In this document: in pieces, positions 11,941-45,966 of the stretch | Position numbering within the stretch: the first letter of the stretch is position 1 | How the letters are laid out: the number at the start of each line of letters is the position of its first letter | Source: Alphaproteobacteria bacterium | GTDB taxonomy: Bacteria; Pseudomonadota; Alphaproteobacteria; RF32; CAG-239 | Length of the DNA stretch: 64,000 bases | Direction: 5' to 3' | NCBI GenBank assembly: GCA_017467515.1 | Contig: JAFUSU010000027.1 | Location: 51,099-115,098 of the forward strand | The notes under the pieces: generated by a model | What the model was told of the DNA's origin: nothing | What the model saw: only the letters and a program-made list of their open reading frames with translations | Database searches by the model: none | Translations under genes and position numbers: made by a program

Positions 11941-12248
11941 AGAGCGCAGCGTACATAGAAGTACGTGAGCATTTTTTCTGCTTGAGAACGACGCACGAGT
12001 AACCCGTTACTGCTTAAAAATTCGGATAATGAGGTTAATCGTAGGAGTTGAAAGAGAAAAAAGCGCAGCGTACATAGAAGTACGTGAGCATTCTTTCTGC
12101 TTGAGAACGACGCACGAGTAACCCGTTACTGCTTAAAAATTCGGATAATGAGGTTAATCGTAGGAGTTGAAAGAGAAAAAAGCGCAGCGTACATAGAAGT
12201 ACGTGAGCATTTTTTCTGCTTGAGAACGACGCACGAGTAACCCGTTAG
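11941..12248. repeat. Tandem direct repeat, 119-bp unit x ~2.6 copies, each unit containing a GTAC-box hairpin
   Basis: Units start at 11944, 12063 and 12182 and are near-identical (single-base differences). Each unit contains CGTACATAGAAGTACG flanked by A-run and T-run, plus a GTAACCCGTTAC palindrome. Confidence 0.9.
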
Positions 12249-12943
12249 ACGAATTTTTTATAAAACTCCTTACGACCTTTACGTGACATACTCCATAAAT
12301 TTCCCCAACCGTTAATGGGCTGAATTTTATAAAGAGAGTCAAAGTGAAAATTACGGCTTAAAAATAAAGAGGTCGTTTTTGTATAATTATTCATCGGACA
12401 GAATCCGTAAAAATCAACTTGTATCAAATCAGCTTGTTGCAAAGCATCAACCGCTTTAACATATTCCTGAGAAGTATTGATACGATCACTGTCATCAAGA
12501 ATAATCATACCGCCGGAAGCTAACCCTCTAACCGCAGCTGAAGCGCATTCGGCACGACGTTTACCATCAATCACTATCACATCATACTTTTTGCCCTCTT
12601 CAAAAATAGCATTTTCATAAATTTCACCTTCATCACGCCAGCGAATATCAAGTTTAGGGTGAGAAAATTCATTTTGCCAGCGCTCAAACCATTGAGGATT
12701 ATCTTCAATACTGGTAACCGATTTAGCACGTTCTGCCCAAAACATTGAAGAATAACCGCAGCCATATTCAAAAATATCTTTATCCGTATAATCAAATTGA
12801 GATATATATTCTATTGCCGGATAGGTATACCAAGGTATCGGATTGCCATCTTTATCAACACAGACTTTTTCATCAATACTGCGTTCAATAGCAAACTCCT
12901 TTTGCCACATTTCAATAAATTTCAAAAATTTTTCACTATACAT
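12245..12943 (-). CDS. Putative class I SAM-dependent methyltransferase (hypothetical)
   Basis: FEYGCGYSS motif-I-like glycine-rich block and acidic residue pattern downstream. Assignment is weak. Confidence 0.45.
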   Translation of the reverse strand: MYSEKFLKFIEMWQKEFAIERSIDEKVCVDKDGNPIPWYTYPAIEYISQFDYTDKDIFEYGCGYSSMFWAERAKSVTSIEDNPQWFERWQNEFSHPKLDIRWRDEGEIYENAIFEEGKKYDVIVIDGKRRAECASAAVRGLASGGMIILDDSDRINTSQEYVKAVDALQQADLIQVDFYGFCPMNNYTKTTSLFLSRNFHFDSLYKIQPINGWGNLWSMSRKGRKEFYKKFV

Positions 12944-13023
12944 AAATACCTCTGTTGAATTTTTAGTTTTGATAGTTATATCACATTTGCCTAAAAAATA
13001 AACCTTTTTAAAAGGAGATAAAA

Positions 13024-13230
13024 ATGAACATCATCAATAAAATAGCTTATATTTTAGTCATTATCGGTGCTCTCAATTGGGGGTTAATCGGAATGGGCGG
13101 ATTTGATCTTGTTGCCTTTATTTTCGGCACAATGAGCTTATTGAGCCGCACCGTTTACAGTCTTGTCGGATTATCTGCTCTGTGGCTGATTATTGCGCCA
13201 TTTATTCAAGATCACAGCAACCACGGTTAG
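13024..13230 (+). CDS. DUF378-family small membrane protein
   Basis: Strong RBS AAAGGAGA. ALNWGLIG..GFDLVAFIFG pattern typical of DUF378/COG2155. Two TM helices. Confidence 0.75.
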   Translation: MNIINKIAYILVIIGALNWGLIGMGGFDLVAFIFGTMSLLSRTVYSLVGLSALWLIIAPFIQDHSNHG

Positions 13231-13266
13231 CAATACTTTAAAAACTTGAATAATGGGCTGTCCTTA

Positions 13267-14313
13267 TTAATAGCCCATTACTCGAGTTTTTTGCATTTTA
13301 GCCGCAGCTGAAGCTATCTGCATAATCAAATAGCTGACAATTTCCTCAGTCGGCATATTCGTTGTTTTACAATCCCGCTCTGCTTTATATAACAGTTCCA
13401 AAACATCAAGCAGACGATTCTTATGCCAGAGAGCAACCTGTGTTTTAAAAGTGCTTTTTCTGAAAAAAATAATTGGTGGAGATATTTTACTGACGGCATT
13501 GTCAATTGTTTCTCCTTTTTCCGTTATTGCCGCGCAATTGAGCAGTTTCATAAAATGATACATCAAATTTCTGACAACGGAAACAGGTTCTCCGCCTTCT
13601 CCTAATAGTTTATTATAAGCCTGCAATGCTTTTTCAACCTGACCTGATGCCGCATAATAACAGACATCATCACCGCTCGCTGCCGAATTATCACTGATAA
13701 CTTTGCAAACATCATCATTGGTAATATTTTTATGCCCGCCCATATAAATCATCAGTTTTTCAATTTCCCCGATATTACTTTTACGATCATTTGATAAACG
13801 GCTGCATAGAAGTTGTAAGGCCTCATTACTGATGGTGTACCCGTTTTCAATAAACATTTGCCGTGCCGTGGCGTAAATAGCCTCATCTCTGTCCTCATAA
13901 CAGGCAATCAAGGCAAAATCATCCCTTTCTTCAGCTAGAGAAACCAGAGAAGATTTCTTATTTAATGATGAAGAAGATAAAATCAGAAGTGTATCCGACT
14001 TAACGGCATCAAGCATTGCTTTTAAAGGTTTGGTAATATTATTGTCAACTTCTTTAACAATAACAACGCGTCGTCCACCCATCAAAGATTGTGCGCCGTA
14101 CTCTCCTGCTAAGACACCCGTATCCGAACTGATATTATCCCATAACAATTGTGAAACCTGAAAAGCATCATTTAAATCCGGCACGATAGCCTGAGCAAAT
14201 TGTTTAACATACTCTGCCACCAAACCGTCATTTGTTCCATATATAACGACACATTTAAGAGAAGGATCCGGATGCTTAATAAATCTGTCAATTTGGCCTT
14301 GTTTATAAATCAC
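13267..14313 (-). CDS. holA: DNA polymerase III delta subunit
   Basis: 348 aa, placed in conserved leuS-lptE-holA order; delta-like N-terminal region. Assignment relies largely on synteny. Confidence 0.7.
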   Translation of the reverse strand: MIYKQGQIDRFIKHPDPSLKCVVIYGTNDGLVAEYVKQFAQAIVPDLNDAFQVSQLLWDNISSDTGVLAGEYGAQSLMGGRRVVIVKEVDNNITKPLKAMLDAVKSDTLLILSSSSLNKKSSLVSLAEERDDFALIACYEDRDEAIYATARQMFIENGYTISNEALQLLCSRLSNDRKSNIGEIEKLMIYMGGHKNITNDDVCKVISDNSAASGDDVCYYAASGQVEKALQAYNKLLGEGGEPVSVVRNLMYHFMKLLNCAAITEKGETIDNAVSKISPPIIFFRKSTFKTQVALWHKNRLLDVLELLYKAERDCKTTNMPTEEIVSYLIMQIASAAAKMQKTRVMGY

Positions 14314-14317
14314 CGTT

Positions 14318-14890
14318 TTATTTCTCTTTTTGTTTTATATTTTTCTGTTCGACATCTTCATAAGAATTAGCCTTTGCGTTAAAAAACGCACCCAAACGCA
14401 ATGCTATATCATTAGCCATAATTTTAGCAGCATCTTTCTGAACTTTTTTACGAGCCACAACCGTAGAATAAGGATTATCTAAAATATCATAACTCACAAA
14501 AGAAACTGTATTTCCTTTAACGAGTTGCTGATCCTTCTCCGTCATATAATATTGAACACTATAATCTATTCGTTTACGAGTTGCCGTAATATCATTACGA
14601 AGAGCTTGATCGTACTCATTTTCCTTGTCAGGTGTAATATACAAATAATATTTTGGTTTTGAAGGCACACCGCGAGGAGTCAATAAATCAATCAGCTCAT
14701 TTTTAATCATTTGGCCTAATCTGCCTCCATGGGCAACAACTTTAATTTGTGCCATCTGATCTGAAACATAATTGTCAAAATCACCATCAAAATACCATTT
14801 TGTATGTTCACTGTCTTTTTGCACATACAAAGGCTCAAAGCCGCAAGCGGCAACAAATAGAAACAAGAAAGCGATAACACTTTTTTTCAT
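14318..14890 (-). CDS. lptE: LPS-assembly lipoprotein LptE
   Basis: Lipobox VAAC after signal peptide, ~190 aa, lies immediately downstream of leuS. Confidence 0.65.
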   Translation of the reverse strand: MKKSVIAFLFLFVAACGFEPLYVQKDSEHTKWYFDGDFDNYVSDQMAQIKVVAHGGRLGQMIKNELIDLLTPRGVPSKPKYYLYITPDKENEYDQALRNDITATRKRIDYSVQYYMTEKDQQLVKGNTVSFVSYDILDNPYSTVVARKKVQKDAAKIMANDIALRLGAFFNAKANSYEDVEQKNIKQKEK

Positions 14891-14900
14891 TGTTATTTTC

Positions 14901-17354
14901 CTAAGCTACAAGGTTAATCAAACGATTTGGAACAACAATAACTTTGCGGATTTCTTTTCCTTCAAGCTGACGTTTTACATTTTCCAATTCTAATGCTTTA
15001 GCCTTTACTTCTTCTTGTGAAGCATTTTTCGGCATTTCTATTGTTCCGCGCATTTTGCCGCAAATTTGAACGGCATATGTGACAACATTATCTTCCGCCA
15101 ATTTTGCATCACCTTTCGGCCAAGCGGCTTTAATTAATAAATCATTATGCCCCAGTCTTGCCCACATTTCTTCGCATAAATGCGGCGTAAACGGACACAT
15201 TAAACGCAATAAAGTTTCATACATCTCTGCCGGAATCTTATCCATATTGGACATATAATTAACGTATGTCATCAAAGAAGAAACGGCTGTATTAAACTTC
15301 ATTTGGTCAATACGTTCCGTCACTTCTAATATAGCCTTATGCATTGCACGAGCATCAGCTTCCGATAATGAAATATTATACACTTTTGTAAACAGAGTGT
15401 ATATCTTACCTATAAAGCGGTAAACACCCATCAGGCTTTCTTCTGACCAAGAAGCAACTTGGTCAAACGGACCGATAAACATTTCATATAATCTGAAAGT
15501 ATCCGCACCGTAAGCCTCAACAATTTCATCCGGATTGACAACATTACCGCGCGATTTAGACATTTTTTCACCATCTGCAGCCAAAATCATTCCGTGTGAA
15601 GTTCGACGATTGTAGGGTTCTTTAGTCGGGACATACCCGCAATCATATAAAAATTTATGCCAAAAACGAGAATATAACAGGTGCAACGTTGTATGCTCCA
15701 TACCACCGTTGTACCAGTCAACATTCATCCAATAATCCAACGCTTCTTTTGAAGCAAATTCCTTATGATTATGCGGATCACAATACCGTAAAAAATACCA
15801 CGAAGAACCGGCCCAGTTCGGCATAACATCTGTTTCACGACGAGCATGACCTCCACAACAAGGACACGTTGTATTAACCCAATCTGTTGCCTTTGCCAAC
15901 GGAGAATCTCCCTCATCATTTGGCAAGAAATCCGTGACCTCCGGCAGAGTTAACGGCAATTCCGATTCAGGAACAGGCTGCCAACCGCATTTTTCACAAT
16001 AAACCATCGGAATTGGCTCACCCCAATAACGTTGACGAGAAAATACCCAGTCACGCAACTTAAAATTAACTTTGGCACGACCGAAACCTTTTTCAGAAGC
16101 ATAAGCAATAGCTTTGCTCATAGCATCTTCTTTATTAAGGCCGTCTAAAAAGCCTGAATTAATATGTGTTCCATCTTCTTCCCACGCTTTTTCGGAAATA
16201 TCGCCACCGGCTAAAACCTGAATAATCGGTAAATTAAAGACTTTCGCAAAGTCATAATCTCGTTGATCGTGAGCAGGAACCGCCATAATAGCGCCCGTTC
16301 CGTACCCCGTTAAAACATAATCAGAAATAAAGACCGGTATTTCTTTTCCGTTAAACGGATTAACAGCTTTAATTCCTTTAAGTTCAACACCCGTTTTATC
16401 GGTACTTTGGGTACGCTGCAAATCAGATTTCTTAGCTGTTTCAGCCACATATGCTTTAACCTCTTCAGCGTTTTTAAATTTTGACATATACTTTTGAACA
16501 AACGGATGCTCCGGCGCCAAAACCATATATGTTACACCGAATGCGGTATCCGGACGTGTTGTAAAGACCGTTAACTTATCCTCACCAAATCCGAAATCCA
16601 GTTCGGCGCCCTCCGAACGACCAATCCAGTTAATTTGCTGAGATTTAACACGATCTATAAAATCCAAATCTTTTAAATCATCAATTAAACGGTCTGCATA
16701 TTTCGTAATGGCAACCATCCATTGCTCTTTATTTTTACGAACGACTTGCGCTCCGCAACGTTCACAACAGCCGTTGACAACTTCTTCATTAGCCAGACCG
16801 ACTTTACAACTCGGACACCAGTTAATTGCCATTTTGGATTTATAAGCCAATCCCTTTTTGAAGAGTTGAATAAACATCCACTGTGTCCATTTATAATACT
16901 CCGGATCACAAGTAGCAAAAGACCTATCCCAATCAAAACTGAATCCCAACGATTTCAGTTGACGCGTAAAATTAGCAATATTTGCCGCTGTGGAAACAGC
17001 CGGATGAACACCTGTCTTAATAGCATAATTTTCAGCAGGCAAACCGAACGCATCAAAGCCCATCGGGTACAAAACATTAAAGCCTTGCATTCTTTTTTTG
17101 CGTGCAATCACATCAAGTGCCGTGTAAGAGCGAGGATGCCCGACATGAAGTCCTGCACCGGAAGGGTAAGGAAATTCGACCAAAGCATAAAATTTTTCTT
17201 TTGTTTTATCAATTTCTACTTTATAAGCTTTCTCATCTTCCCAAATTTTTTGCCATTTTTCTTCAACGGTATGGAAATTATAACGTTCCTCCATAGCCCA
17301 ATCTTTTCGCCACTCATTCCATTCTTTATCGTTAAAATGCGTACTTTTAGTCAT
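14901..17354 (-). CDS. leuS: Leucyl-tRNA synthetase
   Basis: HVGHPRSYT (HIGH), KMSKS, zinc-binding Cys cluster; 817 aa. Confidence 0.95.
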   Translation of the reverse strand: MTKSTHFNDKEWNEWRKDWAMEERYNFHTVEEKWQKIWEDEKAYKVEIDKTKEKFYALVEFPYPSGAGLHVGHPRSYTALDVIARKKRMQGFNVLYPMGFDAFGLPAENYAIKTGVHPAVSTAANIANFTRQLKSLGFSFDWDRSFATCDPEYYKWTQWMFIQLFKKGLAYKSKMAINWCPSCKVGLANEEVVNGCCERCGAQVVRKNKEQWMVAITKYADRLIDDLKDLDFIDRVKSQQINWIGRSEGAELDFGFGEDKLTVFTTRPDTAFGVTYMVLAPEHPFVQKYMSKFKNAEEVKAYVAETAKKSDLQRTQSTDKTGVELKGIKAVNPFNGKEIPVFISDYVLTGYGTGAIMAVPAHDQRDYDFAKVFNLPIIQVLAGGDISEKAWEEDGTHINSGFLDGLNKEDAMSKAIAYASEKGFGRAKVNFKLRDWVFSRQRYWGEPIPMVYCEKCGWQPVPESELPLTLPEVTDFLPNDEGDSPLAKATDWVNTTCPCCGGHARRETDVMPNWAGSSWYFLRYCDPHNHKEFASKEALDYWMNVDWYNGGMEHTTLHLLYSRFWHKFLYDCGYVPTKEPYNRRTSHGMILAADGEKMSKSRGNVVNPDEIVEAYGADTFRLYEMFIGPFDQVASWSEESLMGVYRFIGKIYTLFTKVYNISLSEADARAMHKAILEVTERIDQMKFNTAVSSLMTYVNYMSNMDKIPAEMYETLLRLMCPFTPHLCEEMWARLGHNDLLIKAAWPKGDAKLAEDNVVTYAVQICGKMRGTIEMPKNASQEEVKAKALELENVKRQLEGKEIRKVIVVPNRLINLVA

Positions 17355-22740: not shown

Positions 22741-23352
22741 ATGACTAAGATTTATCAATTATCAGAGCAAAAGGGCCGTTCTATGGTTGAAATGCTCGGC
22801 GTGCTCGCCATCGTCGGCGTGCTGTCCATCGGTGGTATTTCCGGATACTCTAAAGCTATGGCTAAATATAAAATCAACAAAACCGTTGATCAGGTTTCTA
22901 TGCTGATTACCAGCATTCGTACTGCTTTCGGCAACCAAAACTCTTATGCCGGTTTAACGACAGTAAAGGCCATTAACTATGATTTAGTCGGCAATGATTT
23001 GACACTGGGATCAACCAGTACCTTAACCAATGCCTACTCCGGTAGTGTAACAATCGAGGCCTTGACAGATGCAGGCGCTAGCTGTGGCACCAATACATAT
23101 TGTCCAAAATTTGCGGTTACTTATACAAATCTTGATCGTCAAGCTTGTGCTGTAATCGCCTCTTCTGACTGGGGTGGGTCTGCCGCTTCCGGCTTATATA
23201 GCATTACAATTAACTCAGTAGAGCATACTTGGAACGGAACCGCTAATACCGGTGACGGCTTACCGATTGGTTATGACAAAGCTATGAGCGAATGTTCCGG
23301 CGACGGTAAATCTAAATATGTTACAGCAACTATTAAATGGACTTATTACTAA
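22741..23352 (+). CDS. Type IV pilin-like protein, paralogue 1
   Basis: Leader MTKIYQLSEQKG followed by RSMVEMLGVLAIVGVLSIGGISGY, Glu at +5, hydrophobic alpha1-N helix. C-terminal region has 4 Cys. Strong RBS AAGGGAGA. A prepilin peptidase gene is present at 34405-35118. Confidence 0.75.
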   Translation: MTKIYQLSEQKGRSMVEMLGVLAIVGVLSIGGISGYSKAMAKYKINKTVDQVSMLITSIRTAFGNQNSYAGLTTVKAINYDLVGNDLTLGSTSTLTNAYSGSVTIEALTDAGASCGTNTYCPKFAVTYTNLDRQACAVIASSDWGGSAASGLYSITINSVEHTWNGTANTGDGLPIGYDKAMSECSGDGKSKYVTATIKWTYY

Positions 23353-23372
23353 TATTAATCTTAGTCATCTGA

Positions 23373-23404
23373 AAGGCCTCGTTTCAAAGCGAGGCTTTTT
23401 TTTA
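23373..23404 (+). terminator. Rho-independent terminator after pilin-like gene 1
   Basis: GCCTCG-loop-CGAGGC followed by T8. Confidence 0.8.
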
Positions 23405-23530: not shown

Positions 23531-24139
23531 ATGACTAAGATTTATCAATTATCAGAGCAAAAGGGCCGTTCTATGGTTGAAATGCTCGGCGTGCTCGCCA
23601 TCGTCGGCGTGCTGTCCATCGGTGGTATTTCCGGATATTCTAAAGCTATGGCTAAATATAAAATCAACAAAACAGTTGATCAGGTTTCTATGCTGATTAC
23701 CAGTATTCGCACGGCTTTCGGCAACCAAAACTCTTATTACGGTTTGACGACGGAAAAAGCCATTAACTATGATTTGGTCGGCAATGATTTGACATTGGGT
23801 TCAACCTCTACCTTAACCAATGCTTATTCAGGGAGCGTAACCATTGCCGCAAAAACATCTACAGGCGCTGCTTGTTCCACCACTTATTGTCCTGCCTTTT
23901 CAGTTACTTATACAAATCTTGATCGTCAAGCTTGTGCTGTAATCGCCTCTTCTGACTGGGGCGGATCTGCCGCTTCCGGCTTATATAGCATCACAATTAA
24001 CTCATCAACGCACACATGGAACGGAACCGCTAATACCGGTGACGGCTTACCGATTGGTTATGACAAAGCCATGAGCGAATGTTCCGGTGACGGTAAATCT
24101 AAATATGTTACAGCAACCATTATGTGGACTTATTACTAA
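23531..24139 (+). CDS. Type IV pilin-like protein, paralogue 2
   Basis: First ~70 and last ~40 residues are identical to paralogue 1. Central blocks have diverged. Same RBS and same terminator downstream. Confidence 0.75.
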   Translation: MTKIYQLSEQKGRSMVEMLGVLAIVGVLSIGGISGYSKAMAKYKINKTVDQVSMLITSIRTAFGNQNSYYGLTTEKAINYDLVGNDLTLGSTSTLTNAYSGSVTIAAKTSTGAACSTTYCPAFSVTYTNLDRQACAVIASSDWGGSAASGLYSITINSSTHTWNGTANTGDGLPIGYDKAMSECSGDGKSKYVTATIMWTYY

Positions 24140-24159
24140 TATTAATCTTAGTCATCTGA

Positions 24160-24190
24160 AAGGCCTCGTTTCAAAGCGAGGCTTTTTTTA
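24160..24190 (+). terminator. Rho-independent terminator after pilin-like gene 2 (same sequence as after gene 1)
   Basis: GCCTCG-loop-CGAGGC followed by T7. Confidence 0.8.
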
Positions 24191-24259: not shown

Positions 24260-24880
24260 ATGCTTATGGAAATAATTATCTTTTATGCAGCGCTTATCTG
24301 CGCGCTTTTTCTCGGTTTGAGCTATGGGATTTTATTTATCAGAAAAAAAACAAATCTCTCGTCGTTTAAAAGGTTCAATAAACTTGAGTCTTTTCTCTTA
24401 AAGATTCCGGCTCCCTCTGTTAAAATCCTGATAACCCTGCTTATCATTACTGCCATCTGCTTATGTTGGGCTGAAGCGTCTTATCTGACCGATTTATGGT
24501 TGGGAAGAATTGCACTTTCTGTGTGGAACTTAGGCTGTTTATATCTATTGGCCTACATCGTCTATACGATTATTCACCCCTACAGCTTAACAAAAGAAGC
24601 TGCTTGGGCATTTTCCGATAAATATCCTTGTGGGCATAATATAGCAGGATTTATACTGCTGGTTTTCTTGTCAGCCGGTTTAATGTGGCTGTTAAAAGTT
24701 AACGGATATGAGTGGAACATTGCCATTTTCGGTATAAGTGCTCTGGCTGATTATGCAATATTTATGACTGCATACGCTTGCTTCTTTATCGGCAAAATCA
24801 TTTTGTCACTTTGTAAAACAATCTATAAAATGGCAAAGTGGTTGAACAAAGCCTATTGGGAGTGGGTATTGAAACAATAA
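24260..24880 (+). CDS. Integral membrane protein, hypothetical (206 aa, ~6 TM)
   Basis: Hydrophobic helices throughout; immediately downstream of the pilin pair. Confidence 0.5.
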   Translation: MLMEIIIFYAALICALFLGLSYGILFIRKKTNLSSFKRFNKLESFLLKIPAPSVKILITLLIITAICLCWAEASYLTDLWLGRIALSVWNLGCLYLLAYIVYTIIHPYSLTKEAAWAFSDKYPCGHNIAGFILLVFLSAGLMWLLKVNGYEWNIAIFGISALADYAIFMTAYACFFIGKIILSLCKTIYKMAKWLNKAYWEWVLKQ

Positions 24881-24881
24881 T

Positions 24882-24914
24882 AAAAACCCCGTATCATCAG
24901 ATACGGGGTTTTTA
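24882..24914. terminator. Bidirectional rho-independent terminator shared by the membrane-protein gene (+) and rplL (-)
   Basis: A5-CCCCGTATC-loop-GATACGGGG-T5. Confidence 0.8.
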
Positions 24915-24936
24915 TATTTTCAAAATTAAAGTAAAA

Positions 24937-25308: not shown

Positions 25309-25409
25309 ATTTTTTCTCCAATATAAAATAAATTAAACTTTTAACTAAAAACTCTTTTGTTCTTACAATTTGCATCAAACATTTTTCGTTTTAGGCTAGG
25401 TATTACGCT

Positions 25410-25459
25410 GTTATTTTTAAGCACAGTGTACCAAAACAGTACATAAGCGAAAAAATAAC
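25410..25459. repeat. GTAC-box hairpin element (rplJ-rplL intergenic)
   Basis: Stem GTTATTTTT/AAAAATAAC enclosing TGTACCAAAACAGTACA. Confidence 0.6.
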
Positions 25460-25485
25460 AAGTAAGAACTGCATAAAACAAAAAA

Positions 25486-25974
25486 TTAAGCAGCCTCTTG
25501 AGTTTTCTCAGAGTATGCTTTAGTAACGCGAGCTAATTGAGCACCCGGAGCTTGTAACAAACCAATAATTTTGGCGCGTAATTCGTCCATAGACGGAATA
25601 GTAGCCAAACGTTTGATTTCATCAACAGTGAGAACACCCGTTCCCATTGCACCGCCGACAACGATTAACTTTTCATTATCTTTAGCAAATTCGACACAAG
25701 CTTTACAAGCTGACACAGGATCATTGGCGAATGCAATAGCAGTCGGACCTTTGAATAAATCAGCGATAGCTTCAAACTTTGTGCCTTTAAGAGCCAAACG
25801 AGTAATCCGGTTTTTAGTAACTCTAAAACCTGCTCCAGCTTTTCTGATTTTATCTCTTAACTCAGAAACTTCTGCCACCGTTAATCCTTTATAGTGAGAA
25901 ACGACAACGATTTCAGCATCAGAAAACAAACCATTCAGTTCATTGAGCAAGTCTGATTTTTCATTACGATTCAC
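25486..25974 (-). CDS. rplJ: 50S ribosomal protein L10
   Basis: 162 aa; typical L10 N-terminus and position upstream of rplL. Confidence 0.9.
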   Translation of the reverse strand: MNRNEKSDLLNELNGLFSDAEIVVVSHYKGLTVAEVSELRDKIRKAGAGFRVTKNRITRLALKGTKFEAIADLFKGPTAIAFANDPVSACKACVEFAKDNEKLIVVGGAMGTGVLTVDEIKRLATIPSMDELRAKIIGLLQAPGAQLARVTKAYSEKTQEAA

Positions 25975-26289
25975 TTGTTGTCTCCAAATGTGGATATTCT
26001 AAGAGAATACCCGTTTACTTAAACACCATTATCCGCGGCAAAATACCGTGTGATAATGAACTCAATCTGTCCGAGGAGAAAAATATATAAAAAGAAATGT
26101 ATTTACTCTCGTCTATGCAGGAGATTAAGGCATTTGCCGCCTGCAGTCTTGGACAGGGTAAACGACTCATCGTCATTTATTGACTTGGTTAATAATACAT
26201 TACCACTCTCTTGTCAAGACCTTTTTTAAAAGGCTTTTCGCATAAAATAAAGGGAGTATAAAACTCCCTTTTCATAAACTTACCTATCA

Positions 26290-26620
26290 TTGTAAGATTT
26301 TAGTTTGTGGGTAATCTGTAAGATTTGAGACTAATACGACGAAACCTCTTAAGCGCGGTGTACAAACCTAGTACATAAGCTTAAGAGGTTTCTAGCAGTA
26401 GTCCAAGTACAAATATGTAAGATTTGAGGGTTATATGGAGAGAGTTTTTAACGACGTGTACAGCTAGTTACACGAGGAGAAAACTCTCCCATAGAACACC
26501 AAAGACTACAAGTTTGAGAAGTAATCTGTAAGATTTGAGGCTAATACGACGAAACCTCTTAAGCGCGGTGTACAAAACTAGTACATAAGCTTAAGAGGTT
26601 TCTAGTAGTAGTCCAAATAT
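26290..26620. repeat. Three tandem ~105-bp units in the rplA-rplJ leader, each = TGTAAGATTTGAG + GTAC-box hairpin
   Basis: Units begin at ~26318, 26421 and 26528. Units 1 and 3 are near-identical (AACCTCTTAAGC...GCTTAAGAGGTT around GCGGTGTACAAACCTAGTACATAAGC). The middle unit has different stem sequence (GGAGAGAGTTTT...AAAACTCTCCC) but preserved pairing and the GTAC box. Confidence 0.8.
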
Positions 26621-27300
26621 TATAGATTACTAAAGTCAACACGAACGCCAACACCCATAGTCGAGCTGAGTGAAACCTTCTTCATATAAGTTCCTTTAGC
26701 ACCGGCAGGTTTAGCTTTCAAAATTGTTTCGATGAAAGCTTTAGCATTCTGAGTTAATTGTTCTTCCGTAAAAGATGCTTTACCGATACCGGCATGAACA
26801 ATACCGCTTTTTTCAACACGGAATTGAACTTCACCGGCTTTTGCGTTTTTAACGGCTGTTGTAACATCGGCCGTAACGGTACCGAGCTTCGGGTTTGGCA
26901 TCAAACCTTTCGGACCTAAAACACGAGCAACACGACCAGCCATTCCCATCATATCAGGAGTTGCAATACAACGATCAAAATCAACTTTACCTGACATAAT
27001 AGAGTCAACCAAGTTTTCAGCGCCGACAATATCAGCACCGGCAGCTTTAGCTTCATCAGCTTTTTCGCCCTGAGCAAAAACGGCAACACGGATTTTTTTA
27101 CCGCTTCCGTTAGGCAAAGCGCAAACACCGCGAACCATTTGGTCTGCATACTTCGGATCAACGCCGAGGTTAATTGCGACATCGATTGTTTCGTCAAACT
27201 TAGCAGTAGCGTTAGCTTTAACGATTTTAACAGCTTCAGCCAAGCTGTAAGCCTGGTCTTTATTTACTGTTTTGTAAGCATTTTCTATTCTTTTTCCCAT
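26620..27300 (-). CDS. rplA: 50S ribosomal protein L1
   Basis: Aligns along its length with bacterial L1. The likely start is MGKRIEN at 27300, 4 bp from the rplK stop, rather than the track's 27315. Confidence 0.95.
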
Positions 27301-29572: not shown

Positions 29573-30016
29573 GATTTTTTAGCAAAAAACAAACATTTTT
29601 TGTCATATTTTTTGACAAATTAAAAAAATAGAGGAAACAAGCCGTTTTCACGAGCATTTTAAATTTGCGACTCTTATAAATACATCCGCATTAAATTTAT
29701 GAAATAATGTTTTTCATCAAAACCATTGACAAAATATTCTTCTATAGTACACTGGCAACACTTACATACAATGATTAAATTATTTTGTTTATAAAAATTG
29801 CTTGTCTGTAAAAAAAACAGAGTTCCCCTCGCAATTTTAACAATTTTGCTCCGAGGCGAACCGGAGATTTTTCAAATTTTTTCAATTATGGACACCCAAA
29901 AAAAACTAACTCTCTCCAAATTTCTTGAAGAAAGAAGAAAGAATTACGAACTTCTTTTCTGCCTTTTAGACGCTAAGCAGAAAAGCGGGGCATAACAACC
30001 AACAGTTCCCAATAAC

Positions 30017-30058
30017 AAAAAAGCCACCCTCTTCGGTGGCTTTTTTGTTATTGGAGCG
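30017..30058. repeat. Direct duplicate of the terminator hairpin plus last ~15 nt of tRNA-Gly (att-like scar)
   Basis: CCAATAACAAAAAAGCCACCCTCTTCGGTGGCTTTTTTGTTATTGGAGCGGGC matches 30436-30490 with one mismatch. Confidence 0.7.
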
Positions 30059-30478
30059 GGCTGGAGGCAAAAAATTGCTCTTGAATGAGCAATTTTTAAC
30101 GACAGGCGAAGTTTTGTTATTGAGTGAGCTAGTGAAAACGACGCGAAACAAACATTACAAAACGAGTGACCGCAGCGACTTAGTGTTGCGATTAACGCAA
30201 TGCTTACGAGTAAGAAACGTTTCACTCCGCCGCTTCGTCATTTTCTCCCTTTTTCCGTCATACTCGGGCTTGACCCGAGTATCCATTGATAAAGGAATCA
30301 AAATCATTTAATTGCAATGGGATTTGGCTTCGCTACGCTTCGCCGCTTCGTCGTCGCAAGAGCGGCGATGCTTCCGCCTCGCCTGCTCCTCCTAGTGAAC
30401 CCACTTCTTCGTGGCTTCACATCCGTTATCTCTTTCCAATAACAAAAAAGCCACCCTCTTCGGTGGCTTTTTTGTTAC

Positions 30479-30553
30479 TGGAGCGGGCAATGGGATTTGA
30501 ACCCACGACATCAACCTTGGCAAGGTTGCGCTCTACCCCTGAGCTATACCCGC
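30479..30553 (-). tRNA. tRNA-Gly (anticodon GCC)
   Basis: Reverse complement GCGGGTATAGCTCAGGGGTAGAGCGCAACCTTGCCAAGGTTGATGTCGTGGGTTCAAATCCCATTGCCCGCTCCA: cloverleaf, anticodon loop TTGCCAA, T-arm GGTTCAAATCC, encoded CCA. Confidence 0.85.
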
Positions 30554-30695
30554 ATCACTTTAACGAGATATTAGATACCATAATTTTTTTTAATTGCAAG
30601 CACTTTTTTTATATTTTTATAAAATAATAATAAATGGGCCTTTCCTTATCCCGTAAAAACTTGAATAATGCGGCAAGTAATAAGATTTAAGAGAG

Positions 30696-30735
30696 GGGAA
30701 ATGGCATCGTACAAAGAGGTACGTAAGCATTTCCC
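30696..30735. repeat. GTAC-box hairpin element (downstream of groEL)
   Basis: GGGGAAATG...CATTTCCCC stem around ATCGTACAAAGAGGTACGTAAG. Confidence 0.6.
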
Positions 30736-30824
30736 CTACTCGAAAAATCTGTATTAATAGCCCATTAAACGAGTTCTTAAAATACGATAGATGGCATTTC
30801 TAGTAAGATATCGAAAAAATTACG

Positions 30825-30864
30825 AAGGGAGTGTACATAAGCGTACATGACCGAATAATTTTTA
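30825..30864. repeat. GTAC-box hairpin element (downstream of groEL)
   Basis: AAAAATTA...TAATTTTT stem around GTGTACATAAGCGTACATGACC. Confidence 0.5.
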
Positions 30865-30902
30865 AGATATCTGCCCTAGAAATTCATCTTGCGCATTTTA
30901 AT

Positions 30903-32546
<1,644 letters not shown>

Positions 32547-37720: not shown

Positions 37721-37752
37721 CACTCCACTACTCAGATAGTGGAGTTTTTTTT
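37721..37752 (+). terminator. Rho-independent terminator after ferredoxin gene
   Basis: CTCCACTA-loop-TAGTGGAG followed by T8. Confidence 0.8.
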
Positions 37753-37869
37753 GCATTTTTTTGCGATAAAGTCTTGATATTTAAAATCAAGTTGTTATTG
37801 TAAGGCAAATTTTGATTAATCACAAAACCACGACACTCGAGTTCCTAACCGTTTTCTTTCATAAATGGT

Positions 37870-37930
37870 TATGCTGCGACGGAATTTTCGAGCGCCGCGT
37901 ACAACTAGCTACGCTAGCGAGAAAATCCCT
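37870..37930. repeat. GTAC-box-like element upstream of typA (more degenerate)
   Basis: CGCGTACAACTAGCTACGCTAGCG flanked by TTTTCGAG/CGAGAAAA. Confidence 0.35.
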
Positions 37931-37962
37931 AGCATGATGACTATTTAGGAAAGAAAACAAAA

Positions 37963-39783: not shown

Positions 39784-39935
39784 AACGGAAACAAAAAACG
39801 ACATCAGCCTCCAAGCCTTTATCTGTAAGTCTTGGAGGTTTATTTTTGGAATAAATTGGAACATTTTGAAACATTTTGGAACATTTTGGAACGTTTCACC
39901 CTCTGGAAAGATGATGTTATTTATGATAAATATAT
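39784..39935 (+). repeat. Cassette repeat A: terminator-like hairpin (39808-39847) + conserved segment with 3x 10-bp AACATTTTGG micro-tandem
   Basis: CCTCCAAG-loop-CTTGGAGG followed by a T-run. Homologous to the repeats at 40385 and 41216. Confidence 0.8.
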
Positions 39936-40896: not shown

Positions 40897-40906
40897 GGAA
40901 TATTTT

Positions 40907-41340: not shown

Positions 41341-41413
41341 AAACTTGCAATCTATGGCAAAGAATTATATAAAGAAAAGAGCAAAACATAGATACAATGG
41401 GCTAAAATAGAAA

Positions 41414-41725: not shown

Positions 41726-41804
41726 TAAATTTCTTTGTTTAAAGCTTGCTTTTAGACAAAATTTGTGATATATTCTCAGCTAATAGAATATTAAAAATAA
41801 ATTA

Positions 41805-42041
41805 TTGAAAAGTATGAAGAAGGTTTTATTTTACACAGTAATGTCAGCAACATTTAGCTGTGTTGCTATACTTGATTTAATTGCGTCTGTTGTAAATTTT
41901 ATAGAGCACAGATATATGGATTTTACTTTTGGAATAGGCATAACTGTTCTGGCAACATTTGCCGCCGGATATTTTGCCGGTTGTACCTCAAGAACTATCC
42001 ATAAAATAAAACAATCCGCAAAAAATCCCCGAGTTACATAA
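41805..42041 (+). CDS. Small 2-TM membrane protein, hypothetical (78 aa)
   Basis: Two hydrophobic helices. Followed by terminator AAAAATCCCCGAG..CTCAGGGATTTTTT (42021-42056). Confidence 0.45.
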   Translation: MKSMKKVLFYTVMSATFSCVAILDLIASVVNFIEHRYMDFTFGIGITVLATFAAGYFAGCTSRTIHKIKQSAKNPRVT

Positions 42042-42142
42042 GCTCAGGGATTTTTTATTTGTATTTTTACAAACTTATTCTTTACAGAAAAATTTTCCTT
42101 TTATATACTCCCTGCAAAATTAATTATTAAAACTACTATTAT

Positions 42143-42556
42143 ATGAAAAAAATTATTATTTACTTTTTAGCGGTCCTGATGGTCTTATTCTGCATCAGTT
42201 GCACCAGCGCCCCGGTTCACCCGAAAATTATCGGTTGTGCAAAGATTCAATACGCACCGGATGATGATCTTTATTTCATTGACGTGGATAACAATTTACA
42301 CGAAGTTGTTCATATCATTGATAATAAAGCCTTATTGAGCGGAGATAAACAAATTCCACCTAGAGAGGGTGTGCTGGTAACGGCGTTCGTAACAGCAAAT
42401 GATTCTCAGATTCAGTTTATAAAGGGAAACCTGAATAAAAAAGACATTGAGGCCGCTTTCAGTAAAGACTATACCTTATTCTGGTTATTGGTTTTAGGGT
42501 TGTCTTGGCTGTTCTACCTAAATCGCAAAAAAGAAAAACTTTCTCATTACGATTAA
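42143..42556 (+). CDS. Lipoprotein with C-terminal TM anchor, hypothetical (137 aa)
   Basis: Lipobox FCISC after signal peptide. C-terminal LFWLLVLGLSWLFYL. Followed at 42558-42597 by a second copy of the same terminator seen after 41805..42041. Confidence 0.55.
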   Translation: MKKIIIYFLAVLMVLFCISCTSAPVHPKIIGCAKIQYAPDDDLYFIDVDNNLHEVVHIIDNKALLSGDKQIPPREGVLVTAFVTANDSQIQFIKGNLNKKDIEAAFSKDYTLFWLLVLGLSWLFYLNRKKEKLSHYD

Positions 42557-42715
42557 TAAAAATCCCCGAGTTGCCTAAACTCAGGGATTTTTTTATAAGT
42601 ATCCGAATATTCATCCCCTTTGTAAAGGGGAGGCTAGGCAGGGTAGAATAACCCACCCTAACCCTCCCTCACATAGGGAGGGAATAATAAGCATTTTTTA
42701 TCGATTAACTCTGCA

Positions 42716-43249
42716 CTAATCGTGCGAAGACTGAGTTTTCTGCAACTTCTTTATAATCATCTGCCTTTTCAACCGACTAATCCGATCAATATATAAAACC
42801 CCGTCCAAATGATCTAACTCGTGTTGCAAACAAACCGACAACAACCCGTCGCCCAAAATTTCCTGCTCTTTACCATTGTAGTCGGTATAATGAACTTTCA
42901 CTTGCGCATAACGTTCTACTTCGGCACGTTGTCCGGGAACGGATAAACATCCTTCTTCACCGCAAACTTTCTCATCAGAATGCCAAATAATTGAAGGATT
43001 AACTAAAAACAGGGGCGTTCCTTTCCGAAGTTCTCCGGTTTCCTCATCATCTTCCTGATGAACATCTATCACAACAATTCGTTTGGAAATACCGACTTGA
43101 GGAGCGGCTAAACCGACACCGGCATCGGCATACATTGTTTCCAACATATTATCAAGCAGTTGACGTATTTCATCGTCAACTTTATCGACTTTTTGAGCCT
43201 TTTTTTTCAACACCGGCTCAGGATAGGTATAGAGTTTTAATACTGTCAT
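42716..43249 (-). CDS. def: Peptide deformylase
   Basis: GVGLAAPQVG, EGCLSVPG, HELDHLDG motifs. Confidence 0.9.
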   Translation of the reverse strand: MTVLKLYTYPEPVLKKKAQKVDKVDDEIRQLLDNMLETMYADAGVGLAAPQVGISKRIVVIDVHQEDDEETGELRKGTPLFLVNPSIIWHSDEKVCGEEGCLSVPGQRAEVERYAQVKVHYTDYNGKEQEILGDGLLSVCLQHELDHLDGVLYIDRISRLKRQMIIKKLQKTQSSHD

Positions 43250-43316
43250 TTCTTTTCACAAACCTTATCTAAACTTGAAGCGTTCGATTATGAAAGCAAA
43301 TAATAAGAATTTAGGA

Positions 43317-43360
43317 TTTTTGTGAAGGCGCGTACATAAAAAGTACGTAACTGAACAAAA
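43317..43360. repeat. GTAC-box hairpin element (def-nusB intergenic)
   Basis: TTTTGT...ACAAAA around GCGCGTACATAAAAAGTACGTAAC. Confidence 0.55.
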
Positions 43361-43377
43361 TATCCGCTAATTCTGCA

Positions 43378-43872
43378 TTAGTTGCTTTCAGAGCGGACGC
43401 TCTTGGATATTTGGTCAAGCAGAGCATTAATAACCTTCGGCTCATACTTTGTATAGAAAGCATACGCCAAATCGACATATTCTTTAATAATAACTTTAGC
43501 GTCAATATCCAAGGTATGCGCAAGTTCATAAACAGCACACAGCAATAAAGCCTGCATTGTACCGTCCATACGTTCAAAAGACCAACCCTCATTCAAATAA
43601 GAGGCTAACGATTTTTCAATTTGTTCTTTATTGGTATGAACACCTTTAACCAAAGAGGTAAAATACACTGTATCCATTTGCTCAACCGGAACCATTTCTT
43701 CGTGTTCCAAAGAATCTTCTTCTATAACATAACGACCGACATCACCCTTAACAAAATCTTGAATAACCTCCTCGACCGGAAGTTGCCCGTAAGCAATCAT
43801 ATAAGTTGCCTGAACCGCTGCTAAACGAGCACTGGTTCTCATTCTTATTTTTTCGGATACAAATTTAACCAT
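43378..43872 (-). CDS. nusB: Transcription antitermination factor NusB
   Basis: 164 aa; RSARLAAVQATY-type N-terminus characteristic of NusB. Confidence 0.85.
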   Translation of the reverse strand: MVKFVSEKIRMRTSARLAAVQATYMIAYGQLPVEEVIQDFVKGDVGRYVIEEDSLEHEEMVPVEQMDTVYFTSLVKGVHTNKEQIEKSLASYLNEGWSFERMDGTMQALLLCAVYELAHTLDIDAKVIIKEYVDLAYAFYTKYEPKVINALLDQISKSVRSESN

Positions 43873-43881
43873 TTTAACCTC

Positions 43882-44352
43882 TTATACTGTTTCCGGCTTG
43901 GCCAGTTTATCAATTGTTTCTACAAAATCTTCAAAATCTTTTATTTCACGAAAATCTTTATAAACAGAGGCGAAACGAATATACGCAACGTGATCAATTT
44001 TTGACAAAGCATCCATAACGTATTCTCCGATAACGCGTGAAGGAATTTCCGACTCTCCGGAGCTTTCCAATTGCCGCTGAATTGAATTAACAATTTTTTG
44101 AACTCTGTCAGCATCTACGGGACGTTTGCGCACAGATAAAGATATGGATTTCTCAAGTTTATCTCTATCAAACGGAACTCTCTCGCCATTTTTTTTAACC
44201 ACAACCAATTCTCTGAGTTGGATTCTTTCAAAAGTTGTAAAGCGGGAACCGCACTCCGGACACTCTCGGCGTCGACGAATGGCTGTATTATCATCAGCAT
44301 TTCGAGAATCTTTTACTTGCGTGTCATCACATCCGCAAAAAGGACATTTCAT
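43882..44352 (-). CDS. nrdR: Transcriptional repressor NrdR
   Basis: [17 protein letters not shown] zinc ribbon plus ATP-cone. Confidence 0.9.
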
Positions 44353-45746
44353 TTTTCACTTCCCTGTTTAAGTAATTCATCAGCAACCTGATAAAGTTTT
44401 GAAGAATATCTAGCCCCCTTTATAAGGATAATATCCTTATTTTGCAACAATTTATTTAATAAAAATTCTGATAAACCTTCTTTATTTTCAAAATAATAAG
44501 TTTGGCGTCCGTCAGAAATTTGTGCCAACATATCTTTCATTTCCGGACAAACGCCGATAACAATATCTATATTCGTATGAGCAACAACCTGCCCGACCTC
44601 AATATGCTGTTGTAACGAGGTATCTCCCAATTCGGCCATTTTACCGAGAACGGCAATTTTACGCCCTTCACAAGGCATTTTATCTAAAGCTTTAATGGCC
44701 AATTTCATTGCCTCCGGCTGACCGGAATAGCTGTCATCAACCAGCGTATATTGTCCTTTTGCAAACTTCAATTGAGAAATTTTACCACGTCCGGCCAATG
44801 CACCGAAATGTTCAATTTCTGCAGCAGCTTTAGCAACATCTAAACCTAAAACGGCTACAACATTCAAAGCACACAAAGCATTATACAGATAATGCTCGGC
44901 ATTAACACTTAATCGGAATTTAACAACCGTTCCTTGAATATCTGCCGTATATTCTCCGTTTTCTTCTTTGAAAACTTCAGATTTACCAAACGTATAAATT
45001 TTAGCCGCATTTCCTTGAGCTCTGAGTTTCAGAATATTGGCAAAATTGGTGTCTTCATTAATCAGTGCCGGTGAATGAGGCTTAATGGATTTAAATATTT
45101 CCGCTTTTGCCTCAGCAATTCCTTCAAAATTTTCAAAAAATTCTATATGCATCGGGTAGACATTTGTAACTAAGGCTATATCAGGTTGAACATAGGAAGC
45201 TAATTTTTCAATTTCTCCTTTGCCGCTCATTCCCATCTCAATTACGGCATAATCAGCCTCCATATCTAAATCGCACAAACAACGAGGAACACCTATATGG
45301 TTATTAAAATTACCCGTTGTTGCATAGGTTTTACCAAATAAAGACAATAAAAATTTAATTTCTTCTTTTGTTGTTGTTTTTCCGGCACTACCTGTTAAAC
45401 CGATAATTTTTCCTTTAAATAAAGAGCGATTATAAGCGCCTATTTTGCCAAATGCCTCAATAGAAGAATCAACAACAATTTGCCGATTCTTCGGAACGCC
45501 GGCAACAAAATGCTCTACGACAGCCAATTCAACACCCTGATCTATCACTTGTTTGACAAAGTCGTGGGCATCAAATTTTTCACCTTTAATGGCTATAAAC
45601 AAATCTCCCTTTTGGGCGATTCGGCTGTCTGTTACAATATTTTTAATTTCCGCATCAACCAAAGGATGTTGATAATTAAGCACTTCAGCTAATTTTTGAG
45701 ATGATATTTTTTCCATTTTTGAATATTCCTCCTCGAATACACACAA
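44349..45746 (-). CDS. murF: UDP-N-acetylmuramoyl-tripeptide--D-alanyl-D-alanine ligase
   Basis: Mur ligase P-loop [19 protein letters not shown] block; 465 aa. Overlaps the nrdR start by 4 bp. Confidence 0.7.
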
Positions 45747-45807
45747 AATAAAGCAAAGTTATTAAAATTTGATTGAGTCTTACAATGTTTATGAGTATTA
45801 TTTTCTT

Positions 45808-45966
45808 GAGTTTTGAGCATCGCATAAAATGCATAGATGCCGCATACCTTGCTTTAAATTTTTTTTAGGCAGGCAGATATGCGGTTTACAGAAGCGCAAA
45901 AACTTGAGCGTACATAAAGAGTACGTGAGTTTTGAGCAGCGCATAAAATGCATAGATGCCGCATAA
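45808..45966. repeat. Partial tandem duplication (120-bp offset) upstream of dnaE containing GAGTTTTGAGCA(T/G)CGCATAAAATGCATAGATGCCGCATA twice and a GTAC-box hairpin (45896-45935)
   Basis: Two near-identical copies of a 39-mer at 45808 and 45928, with CAAAAACTTGAGCGTACATAAAGAGTACGTGAGTTTTG between them. Confidence 0.7.

Follow-up and report, generated by a model that had tools for sequence, protein, structure and literature searches.

Intergenic Hairpins with a Conserved GTAC Apex Form a Palindromic Repeat Family across Alphaproteobacteria

Why should one short palindrome recur beside so many core genes in a single stretch of alphaproteobacterial DNA? The question was raised by a sequence-only reading of a 64,000-nucleotide window from an Alphaproteobacteria bacterium (lineage CAG-239; assembly GCA_017467515.1, contig JAFUSU010000027.1, positions 51,099 to 115,098 of the forward strand), in which at least ten intergenic sites were said to carry the same inner motif, YGTAC-N6-7-GTACR, inside complementary outer stems. 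Dinucleotide-preserving shuffles predict 0.05 occurrences of the motif with a six-nucleotide spacer and 0.06 with a seven-nucleotide spacer. We observed five of each, hence ten exact sites against ~0.11 expected (positions 11950, 12069, 12188, 25427, 26359, 26569, 30708, 30832, 43331, and 45909). The motif is therefore far more frequent than base composition predicts, and its stems are complementary. The claimed number stands, with the correction that two of the sites originally named, near 26437 and ~37885, lack the literal motif and belong to the family as variants. Their inner hairpins, GTGTA-CAGCTAGT-TACAC and GCGTA-CAACTAG-CTACGC, respectively, have a shifted inner stem of the general form GYGTA-CARCTAGY-TACRC. 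R1, a covariance model derived from alignment A2 and covering the 57-nt core, recognized exactly 12 copies in the window with E <= 5e-6, all on the + strand between 11.9 and 46 kb, and the best match beyond these 12 reached E = 0.06. Three copies form a tandem array at 11941–12247 (period 119 bp, 2.6 units), and three more are arranged head to tail between rplA and the rplJ leader. The tetranucleotide GTAC is itself rare in the window (98 sites versus ~220 expected from base composition); ~22 of these 98 sites lie in the elements, two per exact copy and one per variant.

The motif is not a unit in itself. Each occurrence forms the apex of an imperfect hairpin of ~105 nt with a fold energy between −27 and −47 kcal/mol, and across the family the unit measures ~105–120 nt. 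That the motif might be merely the tip of one longer palindromic repeat had been listed beforehand as an outcome that refutes the original description, and on this point the description had to be revised. The hairpin begins with an outer stem of locus-specific sequence, followed in many copies by a stem of 3–4 bp between GAAG- and CAAG-type internal loops. Next comes a middle stem of 10–14 bp, the sequence of which is free to vary between copies while complementarity is kept. An asymmetric internal loop (5′ side GCRG, 3′ side TRA) then leads to the apex stem YGTAC/GTACR (5–6 bp), which is closed by a loop of 6–8 nt. The conserved part reads GC-GCRG-YGTAC-(6–8 nt loop)-GTACR-TRA-GC. We also considered the internal loop as a kink-turn, which was ruled out by inspection, as the bulged strand has no G-A after a 3-nt loop. 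A likeness between GUACGUGAGCACCGGA and GUACGAGAGGACCGGA, which we take to be the 23S sarcin-ricin loop sequence, is probably a coincidence: the GUAC in question pairs with an upstream GUAC, and the low-GC copies drop the motif.

Covariation in the middle stem is strong. Among 34 distinct copies from the window and its relatives, 88.7% of the cells predicted to pair are in fact paired, compared with 65.4% in shuffled controls, and 125 cells have changed on both sides of the pair, compared with 41 in the controls; neither observed value was reached in any of 500 shuffles. When the 3′ partners were slid along the arm, pairing dropped to 33–67% and the signal was lost. Counted arm against arm, the low-GC copies contain 926 Watson–Crick, 29 G·T, and 39 A·C pairs. 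Compensatory variation around a conserved core, as proposed from the sequence alone, is hence strongly borne out, and the four outer stems quoted as examples were all found in the sequence with their pairing intact. Apart from the apex, overall likeness among the copies is at the level of shuffled sequence. The median pairwise identity of the dispersed window copies is 0.58, compared with 0.56 for shuffled sequence, which argues that they are not the product of a recent burst of one mobile repeat. Only one adjacent pair (26313/26523) reaches 92% identity.

Individual copies can be followed in related genomes. Metagenome scaffolds with an identical GroEL carry near-identical DNA, and among the matches listed, the best-matching named GroEL loci, at 77% identity, are those of Rhodospirillales. 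The distant GC-rich Alphaproteobacteria returned by the GroEL search served as negative controls only. Further relatives were found through L10 and NusB; these are labeled "MAG: Alphaproteobacteria bacterium", and their contig and sample names indicate human-gut metagenomes, with sample identifiers that we read as rumen in some cases. In ~1 Mb of such loci, our models found ~80 copies, all on one strand relative to rplJ and nearly all at two sites, namely after the gene that precedes the rplJ leader and in the rplJ-rplL spacer. The preceding gene is rplA in loci L088 and L089; in L086 it encodes a pyruvate phosphate dikinase (PEP-utilizing enzyme) and in L090 an acylphosphatase. In most lineages the rplJ-rplL spacer is 162–181 nt long and contains a hairpin of ~105 nt that starts at the stop codon, whereas relatives without the hairpin have a spacer of 32–65 nt. 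This copy occurs in lineages with 85–100% L10 identity; the arms and even the apex type differ among them, and the hairpin is kept even in lineages whose GTAC apex has changed to GTAG/CTAC or given way to a different one. Likewise, the copies after rplA in the window, L088, L089, and L092 have a common outer arm and middle stems that are unrelated in sequence and perfectly complementary.

The other sites of the window show the same mixture of persistence and turnover. The nusB copy is present in L171 and L173 and absent from L172; the def site carries a full copy in L171; and the copy upstream of dnaE is present in L172 and absent from L171. Upstream of typA, L171 and L172 each have two copies, sense to typA as in the window, so that this placement is common to genomes with 75–78% NusB identity. 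At nusB, the outer stem is formed by the last codons of the gene and a downstream complement, which change in step between genomes. We also tried the idea that the NusB C-terminus derives from the element; its xxEN tail occurs in L172 as well, which has no element at this site. Partial tandem duplications are common, including direct repeats of ~39 and ~44 nt. Flanking direct repeats are otherwise at chance level, so that a search for target-site duplications found nothing beyond what partial tandem duplication explains. Head-to-tail arrays were seen in L088 (7945–8073), L089 (5889–6087), L173 (10500–10800), and L172 (12934–13096). They consist of units with the 5′ arm and apex and no 3′ arm, or of whole units with a period of ~121 nt, which suggests slippage or unequal exchange between copies.

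Since saturated copies still pair and folds at the same site persist, each copy seems to be maintained by itself rather than continually replaced from a master element; upkeep at the individual locus is the simplest way to account for intact pairing after so much divergence. The original contrast between a structured hairpin and a simple mobile repeat is thus only half right. Covariation and the absence of a recent burst speak for the hairpin, while presence or absence between relatives, truncated remnants, partial tandem duplications with the resulting arrays, and lineage-specific expansion are the behavior of repetitive extragenic palindromes (REPs).

The family is not confined to this lineage. 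A search with the pattern GCGCRGYGTACN{6,8}GTACRTRAGC matched 23 viral contigs with 55–69% GC and similar flanks. In L186, the sole contig annotated with Pfam, a hairpin of 117 nt lies between a DUF2460 gene and the gene that precedes it, a few nucleotides past the end of the latter. Since this cluster encodes tail tube, tail assembly chaperone, baseplate hub, and gene-transfer-agent (GTA) TIM-barrel proteins, it is a GTA cluster, and by likeness of their flanks the remaining 22 contigs probably carry the hairpin at the same DUF2460 site. A second GTA-cluster copy directly follows the major capsid gene, within ~1 nt; in short, the GTA-cluster hairpins sit after the capsid and the tape-measure genes. 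An alignment of 21 GTA-type hairpins contains 32 predicted pairs, 18 of which show double changes, around the invariant apex block CGAGAACCGG-A-GCGCAGCGTAC-loop-GTACGTGAGC-A-CCGGAAGCGCAG. In the GC-rich relatives (L174–L196, alignment A8), the sequence CCGGA(A)GCGCAG occurs twice in direct orientation on one strand, once beside the apex in the 5′ arm and once as the internal loop of the 3′ arm. No hairpin described for RcGTA clusters turned up in our searches of the literature.

A covariance model built from GTA-cluster hairpins only, with the window copies left out (R3), recovers window copies at E = 9e-7 to 5e-4. Nine of the 12 copies, all on the + strand, score E < 0.1, five of them E <= 2.2e-5. 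As controls, other alphaproteobacterial loci (1.45 Mb) gave one weak match with R3 (E = 0.35) and none with model R2. A blastn search against plasmids placed the 117-nt element at 57 positions in 32 records from Sphingobium, Shinella, Phyllobacterium, Agrobacterium/Allorhizobium, Ensifer, Rhizobium, Bosea, Novosphingobium, Aminobacter, and Mesorhizobium; the same search gave no match on Sinorhizobium megaplasmids. The plasmid matches are mostly intergenic (3 of the 32 best places overlap an annotated coding sequence), and the copies that we checked lie ~12–40 nt from a stop codon. Scored with R3, 15 of 16 plasmid loci from ten genera reach 72–118 bits and one reaches 24.7 bits. By sequence and predicted fold, these comparisons show that the window elements are related to the GTA-cluster and plasmid hairpins, and they extend the predicted family to megaplasmids of Rhizobiales and Sphingomonadales. 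We regard as established that a family of structured palindromes with a conserved apex is spread over Alphaproteobacteria and behaves in the genome like REPs.

Which genes do the copies accompany? Pfam assignments beside the window copies are rlmN, rplL, rplJ, rplA, htpG, typA, def, nusB, and a Mur ligase. The chaperonin Cpn60 gene at the 30664–30892 copies is read as groEL, and the identity of dnaE rests on the Pfam domains (PHP, DNA_pol3_alpha) of the syntenic gene in L171 and L172. With these two provisos, the original list of neighbors, rplKAJL, groESL, typA, nusB/def, dnaE, and rlmN, is supported by Pfam for rplA, rplJ, rplL, groEL, typA, nusB, def, dnaE, and rlmN. In five cases in the window, the − strand gene to the right of a copy ends within the copy or right beside it, with stop-codon offsets of −13 to +11 nt; these genes are the methyltransferase gene, rplJ, rplA, groEL, and nusB. 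The other window copies are extra array units or lie in the 5′ regions of the + strand genes typA and dnaE. In general, the usual site of a copy is 0–30 nt past a stop codon, within an operon or between convergent genes.

What keeps such copies paired at their loci? The account that we tentatively prefer, short of calling it probable, is that of a REP-like structured intergenic palindrome family native to Alphaproteobacteria, maintained copy by copy and acting as a stem-loop at cistron ends. Each copy would be kept at its own locus as its fold matters there. Transcribed together with the neighboring cistron, it would form a very stable stem-loop at the cistron boundary, which would block 3′ exonucleases and/or attenuate read-through and would so set the relative expression of the neighboring cistrons. 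The invariant apex would be the recognition site of a putative sequence-specific factor. New copies would be rare and arise by local tandem duplication with occasional dispersal, and in the lineage of the window, highly expressed genes would be the places around which the family expanded. REP elements in E. coli and the intercistronic stem-loops of the Rhodobacter puf operon stabilize upstream mRNA segments, and placement after the capsid gene, rplJ, and groEL fits stabilization of the upstream mRNA or attenuation of read-through. For a GTA cluster, there is an experimental parallel: in Caulobacter, three tandem 150-bp repeats with imperfect inverted repeats are a strong terminator (PMC11150451).

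Several observations weigh against this account. A bare stem-loop function leaves the invariance of the apex from 34% to 69% GC unexplained, which is why a sequence-specific reader is needed. Ten of the 12 copies lack a T-run. The remaining difficulties concern the strand. We define the model strand as the one that reads GCRG...TRA. In the window and at every syntenic locus it is the C-rich strand, including two copies that are sense to their neighbors; as the highly expressed genes lie on the opposite strand, we take the C-rich strand to be the lagging-strand sequence. Such uniform placement on a single strand would fit a process linked to DNA replication. Orientation to transcription, on the other hand, is mixed: at most sites of the window and its relatives and at both GTA sites, the model strand runs antisense to the gene next to it upstream, and at typA, dnaE, and 4 of 13 annotated plasmid sites it runs sense. 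The 13 plasmid contexts comprise six antisense copies, four sense copies (one of them in a divergent 5′ region), and three copies between convergent genes. Of three plasmid copies examined for GC skew, one has a C-rich model strand although its genes are sense, another has a G-rich one, and the third shows no signal; a replication-strand rule for plasmids was dropped on this basis. The two strands also differ in fold energy, to the advantage of the model strand in 20 of 21 GTA copies (on average −9.2 kcal/mol) and 20 of 26 low-GC copies (on average −3.7 kcal/mol). The GTA copies have 35 G·T and 8 A·C pairs, not counting an invariant G·T with which the apex stem begins at its base; the middle stem of the low-GC copies has 17 and 14, respectively. 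Since cytosine deamination on an exposed strand predicts the opposite bias, this asymmetry looks selected, yet the strand that it favors is in most cases not that of the mRNA: the better-folding, G·T-bearing strand is antisense to the flanking genes at most window sites and in GTA clusters.

The strand data are what a selfish element of the REPIN or REP type would make intelligible, and this is the alternative that we consider possible, if doubtful. The hairpin would form in single-stranded DNA at the replication fork, where an HUH enzyme (Y1, of the RAYT or IS200/IS605 type) would read the apex and copy or move the element, so that any effects on transcripts would be incidental. A sequence-specific apex on one preferred folding strand suits a hairpin-binding transposase, and the C-rich strand carries all 12 window copies and every syntenic copy, the two sense to genes among them, as well as one plasmid copy that is sense to its genes. 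Copies are scattered over intergenic sites in varying number, relatives have gained and lost them, and there are truncated remnants and partial tandem arrays (periods of 105–121 nt). Near-identical 117-nt copies exist on plasmids of different orders, and REPINs likewise show compensatory changes and long vertical persistence (PMC3116915). However, a Pfam scan of 30 open reading frames in the window found no transposase, and the precomputed Pfam gene lists of the fetched GroEL-, L10-, and NusB-relative loci contain no Y1 family. There is no master sequence, as outside the apex the window copies are as different as shuffled sequence. The anatomy is inverted, with a conserved apex and variable ends, and we found neither a fixed GT[AG]G motif nor a conserved flanking target sequence or target-site duplication. 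In addition, the better-folding strand has the sequence of the leading-strand template, whereas IS200/IS605 elements use the lagging-strand template, and the GC skew of the plasmids speaks once for, once against, and once not at all. Invariance of the apex across very different GC contents could also mean that the DNA itself is the host's site. A chromosomal protein (nucleoid-associated, a topoisomerase, or a replication factor) would then bind CGTAC-N6-7-GTACG and its flanks, and the arms would favor cruciform extrusion, as has been proposed for gyrase and IHF binding at enterobacterial bacterial interspersed mosaic elements (BIMEs). The few and roughly symmetric wobbles of the low-GC copies fit pressure on DNA complementarity, and both the uniform chromosomal orientation and the position of copies downstream of highly transcribed genes (rpl genes, groEL, capsid) agree with such a site. 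Nevertheless, we think it rather improbable: a duplex binding site needs no 100 nt of covarying arms, the strand asymmetry of wobbles in GTA copies is not expected of a duplex or cruciform, and we know of no candidate protein.

Could the elements instead be genes for small RNAs? Independent small RNAs or cis-antisense RNAs from the better-folding strand would be sense in the leaders of typA and dnaE and, at rpl genes, groEL, nusB, and GTA genes, antisense to the 3′ ends. In 40 of 47 copies the model strand folds more stably than its complement, and in the GTA copies it carries the G·U pairs; in Sinorhizobium meliloti REP elements and 3′-end antisense RNAs have been detected as small stable RNAs (PMC2873474). 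This proposal is nonetheless hard to sustain and, in our judgment, very unlikely. No upstream promoter is conserved. The sequence TAAGAT in the 5′ arm, tried as a −10 promoter element, has no consistent −35 partner on inspection, and promoter-like matches in the region exceed those in shuffled sequence at most modestly (66 versus 54.2, sd 6.3; 52 versus 46.9, sd 6.0). No terminator follows on the model strand. A search of Rfam 15, which had been suggested along with the original motif, gave no match on the window elements at gathering thresholds or at E <= 1, and none at the gathering threshold on eight GTA contigs. That the hairpins are ordinary Rho-independent terminators which share a stem sequence by chance is largely refuted by the sequence and hardly deserves credence. 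The copies at 11949 and 12187 alone pass a hairpin-plus-T-run rule; because they are the only two, the earlier statement that most copies are not ordinary terminators holds. By the definition of an intrinsic terminator, a GC-rich stem directly followed by a U-tract, the family as a whole does not qualify, with again 2 of 12 copies passing. Most copies have a T-run 5′ of the apex and an A-run 3′ of it; a minority, located at operon ends or between convergent genes, has the reverse arrangement, as a terminator would. Several copies lie inside operons (rplJ-rplL, nusB-def), and canonical short GC-rich terminators are present elsewhere in the window, for example after rplL (24880–24915) and after a ferredoxin gene (37722–37745). 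A last possibility combines termination with a reader of the apex. The apex would be the docking site of a conserved alphaproteobacterial factor, and the hairpins would be a class of terminators or attenuators without a U-tract, of the same kind as terGTA. This idea is unlikely in our view. If it were true, the hairpins would partition expression in GTA clusters, after the capsid and tape-measure genes, and in some lineages within core operons such as rplKAJL, groESL, and nusB-def; they would be gated by ribosomes passing the neighboring stop codon or by processive anti-termination.

How does the stem-loop family that we prefer compare with known systems? REP elements affect the stability of mRNA and, when near stop codons, its translation. 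REP/BIME elements and REPINs of Enterobacteria and Pseudomonas resemble the present family as extragenic palindromes near gene ends and within operons. REPINs further resemble it in their long hairpins with compensatory changes, their tandem clusters, and their long vertical persistence (PMC3116915). REPINs have two conserved inverted REP ends and a variable middle, whereas here the apex is conserved and the outer arms are locus-specific. The REP hallmark GT[AG]G is scattered or absent in the 26 low-GC and 21 GTA-type copies. Also unlike REPINs, the copies within one genome have diverged to saturation. No RAYT-type Y1 transposase was found among 30 scanned open reading frames of the window or in the gene lists of the fetched loci. 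In intercistronic stem-loops such as the malE-malF REP and Rhodobacter pufA-pufL, which set the stability of mRNA segments, a stable hairpin directly follows the more highly expressed cistron, as it does here after capsid, rplJ, and groEL. Those hairpins, however, have no shared motif and are not a dispersed family conserved across orders.

The closest parallel in a GTA cluster is terGTA of Caulobacter crescentus, three 150-bp GC-rich direct repeats that form a strong terminator bypassed by GafZ anti-termination (PMC11150451). Both are long imperfect palindromes found directly after a gene in alphaproteobacterial GTA clusters, and the present family, like terGTA, also forms tandem arrays; in GTA clusters it has sites after the capsid gene and upstream of the DUF2460 gene. 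By its description, which is all that we compared, terGTA differs in its place after the first gene (gtaT) and in its unit of 150 bp. The CIR repeats of Caulobacter were reportedly defined by Chen and Shapiro in 2003 by an embedded CcrM GANTC site; that site is present in just 3 of 26 low-GC and 3 of 21 GTA-type copies here. CIR, together with RIME and Sm of rhizobia, is otherwise similar by description: more than 100 bp long, strictly intergenic, with inverted repeats, and from Alphaproteobacteria (in part from the review PMC10969869). Palindromes of ~100–150 bp in intergenic regions or 3′-UTRs, which sometimes supply stop codons, are also found as Correia/NEMIS, ERIC, Rickettsia palindromic elements, and Coxiella QMITE2. 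One subclass of our family has a trait of miniature inverted-repeat transposable elements, namely inverted-repeat-like ends TAGKGCAGATTT...AAATCTTACTA. In contrast to such elements, the family has no family-wide terminal inverted repeat, no target-site duplication, and no parent insertion sequence; its orientation is uniform, and its arms covary rather than being conserved. Integron attC sites and the single-strand origins of rolling-circle plasmids conserve structure over sequence, work from one strand, and lie just after open reading frames, and in all three respects they resemble our elements. However, the R″/R′ boxes (GTTRRRY) of attC are missing by inspection, the neighbors are housekeeping genes rather than cassettes, and no integrase or Rep gene is nearby. 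Integron attC, CtrA boxes (TTAA-N7-TTAA), and alphaproteobacterial LexA boxes (GTTC-N7-GTTC) were each tried as an identity for the element, and the sequences do not fit.

Because REP-, CIR-, and RIME-type repeats are known in Proteobacteria, the kind of element is not new. What appears to be new is the conserved apex with free, covarying arms, the reach across orders, the presence in GTA clusters, and a family for which Rfam has no model. The family may coincide with an older named repeat, as CIR, RIME, and terGTA were compared by description only. An invariant apex common to gut and rumen Alphaproteobacteria, GTA clusters, and megaplasmids points to an undescribed sequence-specific reader. 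GTA clusters have unexplained internal control points, for which the hairpins are a concrete candidate, and in an uncultured gut lineage the copies at rplJ-rplL, groEL, and typA may influence how core genes are expressed. The hairpins offer a natural test of how long palindromes remain perfectly paired during sequence turnover. Even as a mere REP-type repeat the family would be a useful marker and would fill an annotation gap.

The individual copies, all on the + strand, are described below in map order. Array unit 1 (11940..12010) has the apex CGTACATAGAAGTACG, lacks the outer 5′ arm, and gives a partial R1 match at 11940–11974 (model positions 12–46). Unit 2 (12025..12129) is a complete hairpin of ~105 nt (R1 50.6 bits; R3 E = 2.9e-6; fold −32.3 kcal/mol). 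Unit 3 (12144..12248, R1) includes the stop codon of the − strand methyltransferase gene (12245–12247) in its outer 3′ arm, and it looks like a bidirectional terminator because its middle stem has an A-run on the 5′ side and a T-run on the 3′ side. TRF describes the array at 11943–12247 as 2.6 copies of a 119-bp period with 98% identity. The copy in the rplJ-rplL spacer (25383..25487, 52.1 bits with R1) abuts the rplJ stop codon (25486–25488). Between the rplJ leader and rplA stand three neighboring copies. The one at 26313..26420 (R1) is 92% identical to 26523–26630; the variant at 26411..26517 (47 bits) has the apex GTGTA-CAGCTAGT-TACAC, a type that also occurs in L086/L087, L104, and L157; and the copy at 26523..26630 (56.8 bits; fold −47.2 kcal/mol) covers the rplA stop codon (26620–26622) with its outer arm. 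Two copies recognized by R1 lie downstream of groEL: 30788..30892, located 11 nt past the stop codon (30903–30905), and 30664..30768, upstream of a tRNA-Gly gene.

Farther along the window, the variant in the typA 5′ region (37852..37958, R1 44.9 bits) is sense to typA, the ribosome-binding site of which (GGAAAG) sits within the outer 3′ arm. A truncated remnant (42688..42718), recognized by comparison with the full post-def copy of L171, directly follows the def stop codon; it has kept the def-side arm alone and is cut at the apex. It is abutted by a cluster of G-run/C-run hairpins downstream of def (~42560–42687: CCCTCCC..GGGAGGG, GGGTGGG..CTACCC, and CTCCCC..GGGGA), which is kept in L171 (~11325–11400) and may have replaced the other half of the truncated element. 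The copy in the nusB-def spacer (43287..43391), identified by R1 and by comparison with relatives, takes the last codons and the stop codon of nusB (43378–43380) into its outer stem. The copy upstream of dnaE (45865..45969; R1 42.7 bits; R3 E = 2.2e-5) is sense to this gene, the true start of which is likely the ATG at 45980 by comparison with relatives. A partial duplicate of its 3′ arm (45808..45847) was recognized from a direct repeat of ~39 nt with 45927–45966.

Several other features of the window were noted in passing. Upstream of rplJ, a weak L10_leader match (26079–26171, − strand) scores 30 bits against a gathering threshold of 44; the L10 leader of this clade is probably too divergent for the Rfam model. 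A direct repeat of 56 nt with 96% identity (30006–30061 and 30433–30488), consisting of the 3′ end of tRNA-Gly(GCC) and its bidirectional terminator, flanks a gene-poor island of 427 bp next to this tRNA, which may be the scar of an integrated element. About 60 nt past the typA stop codon, the 10-nt tandem repeat TTTTGGAACA is present in 5.3 copies (39844–39896). Finally, two paralogous genes for PilS/bundlin-type (type IVb) pilins (22741–23352 and 23531–24139) share the same 18-nt tandem repeat, and each is followed by the identical terminator GAAAGGCCTCGTTTCAAAGCGAGGCTTTTT (23371–23400 and 24158–24187).

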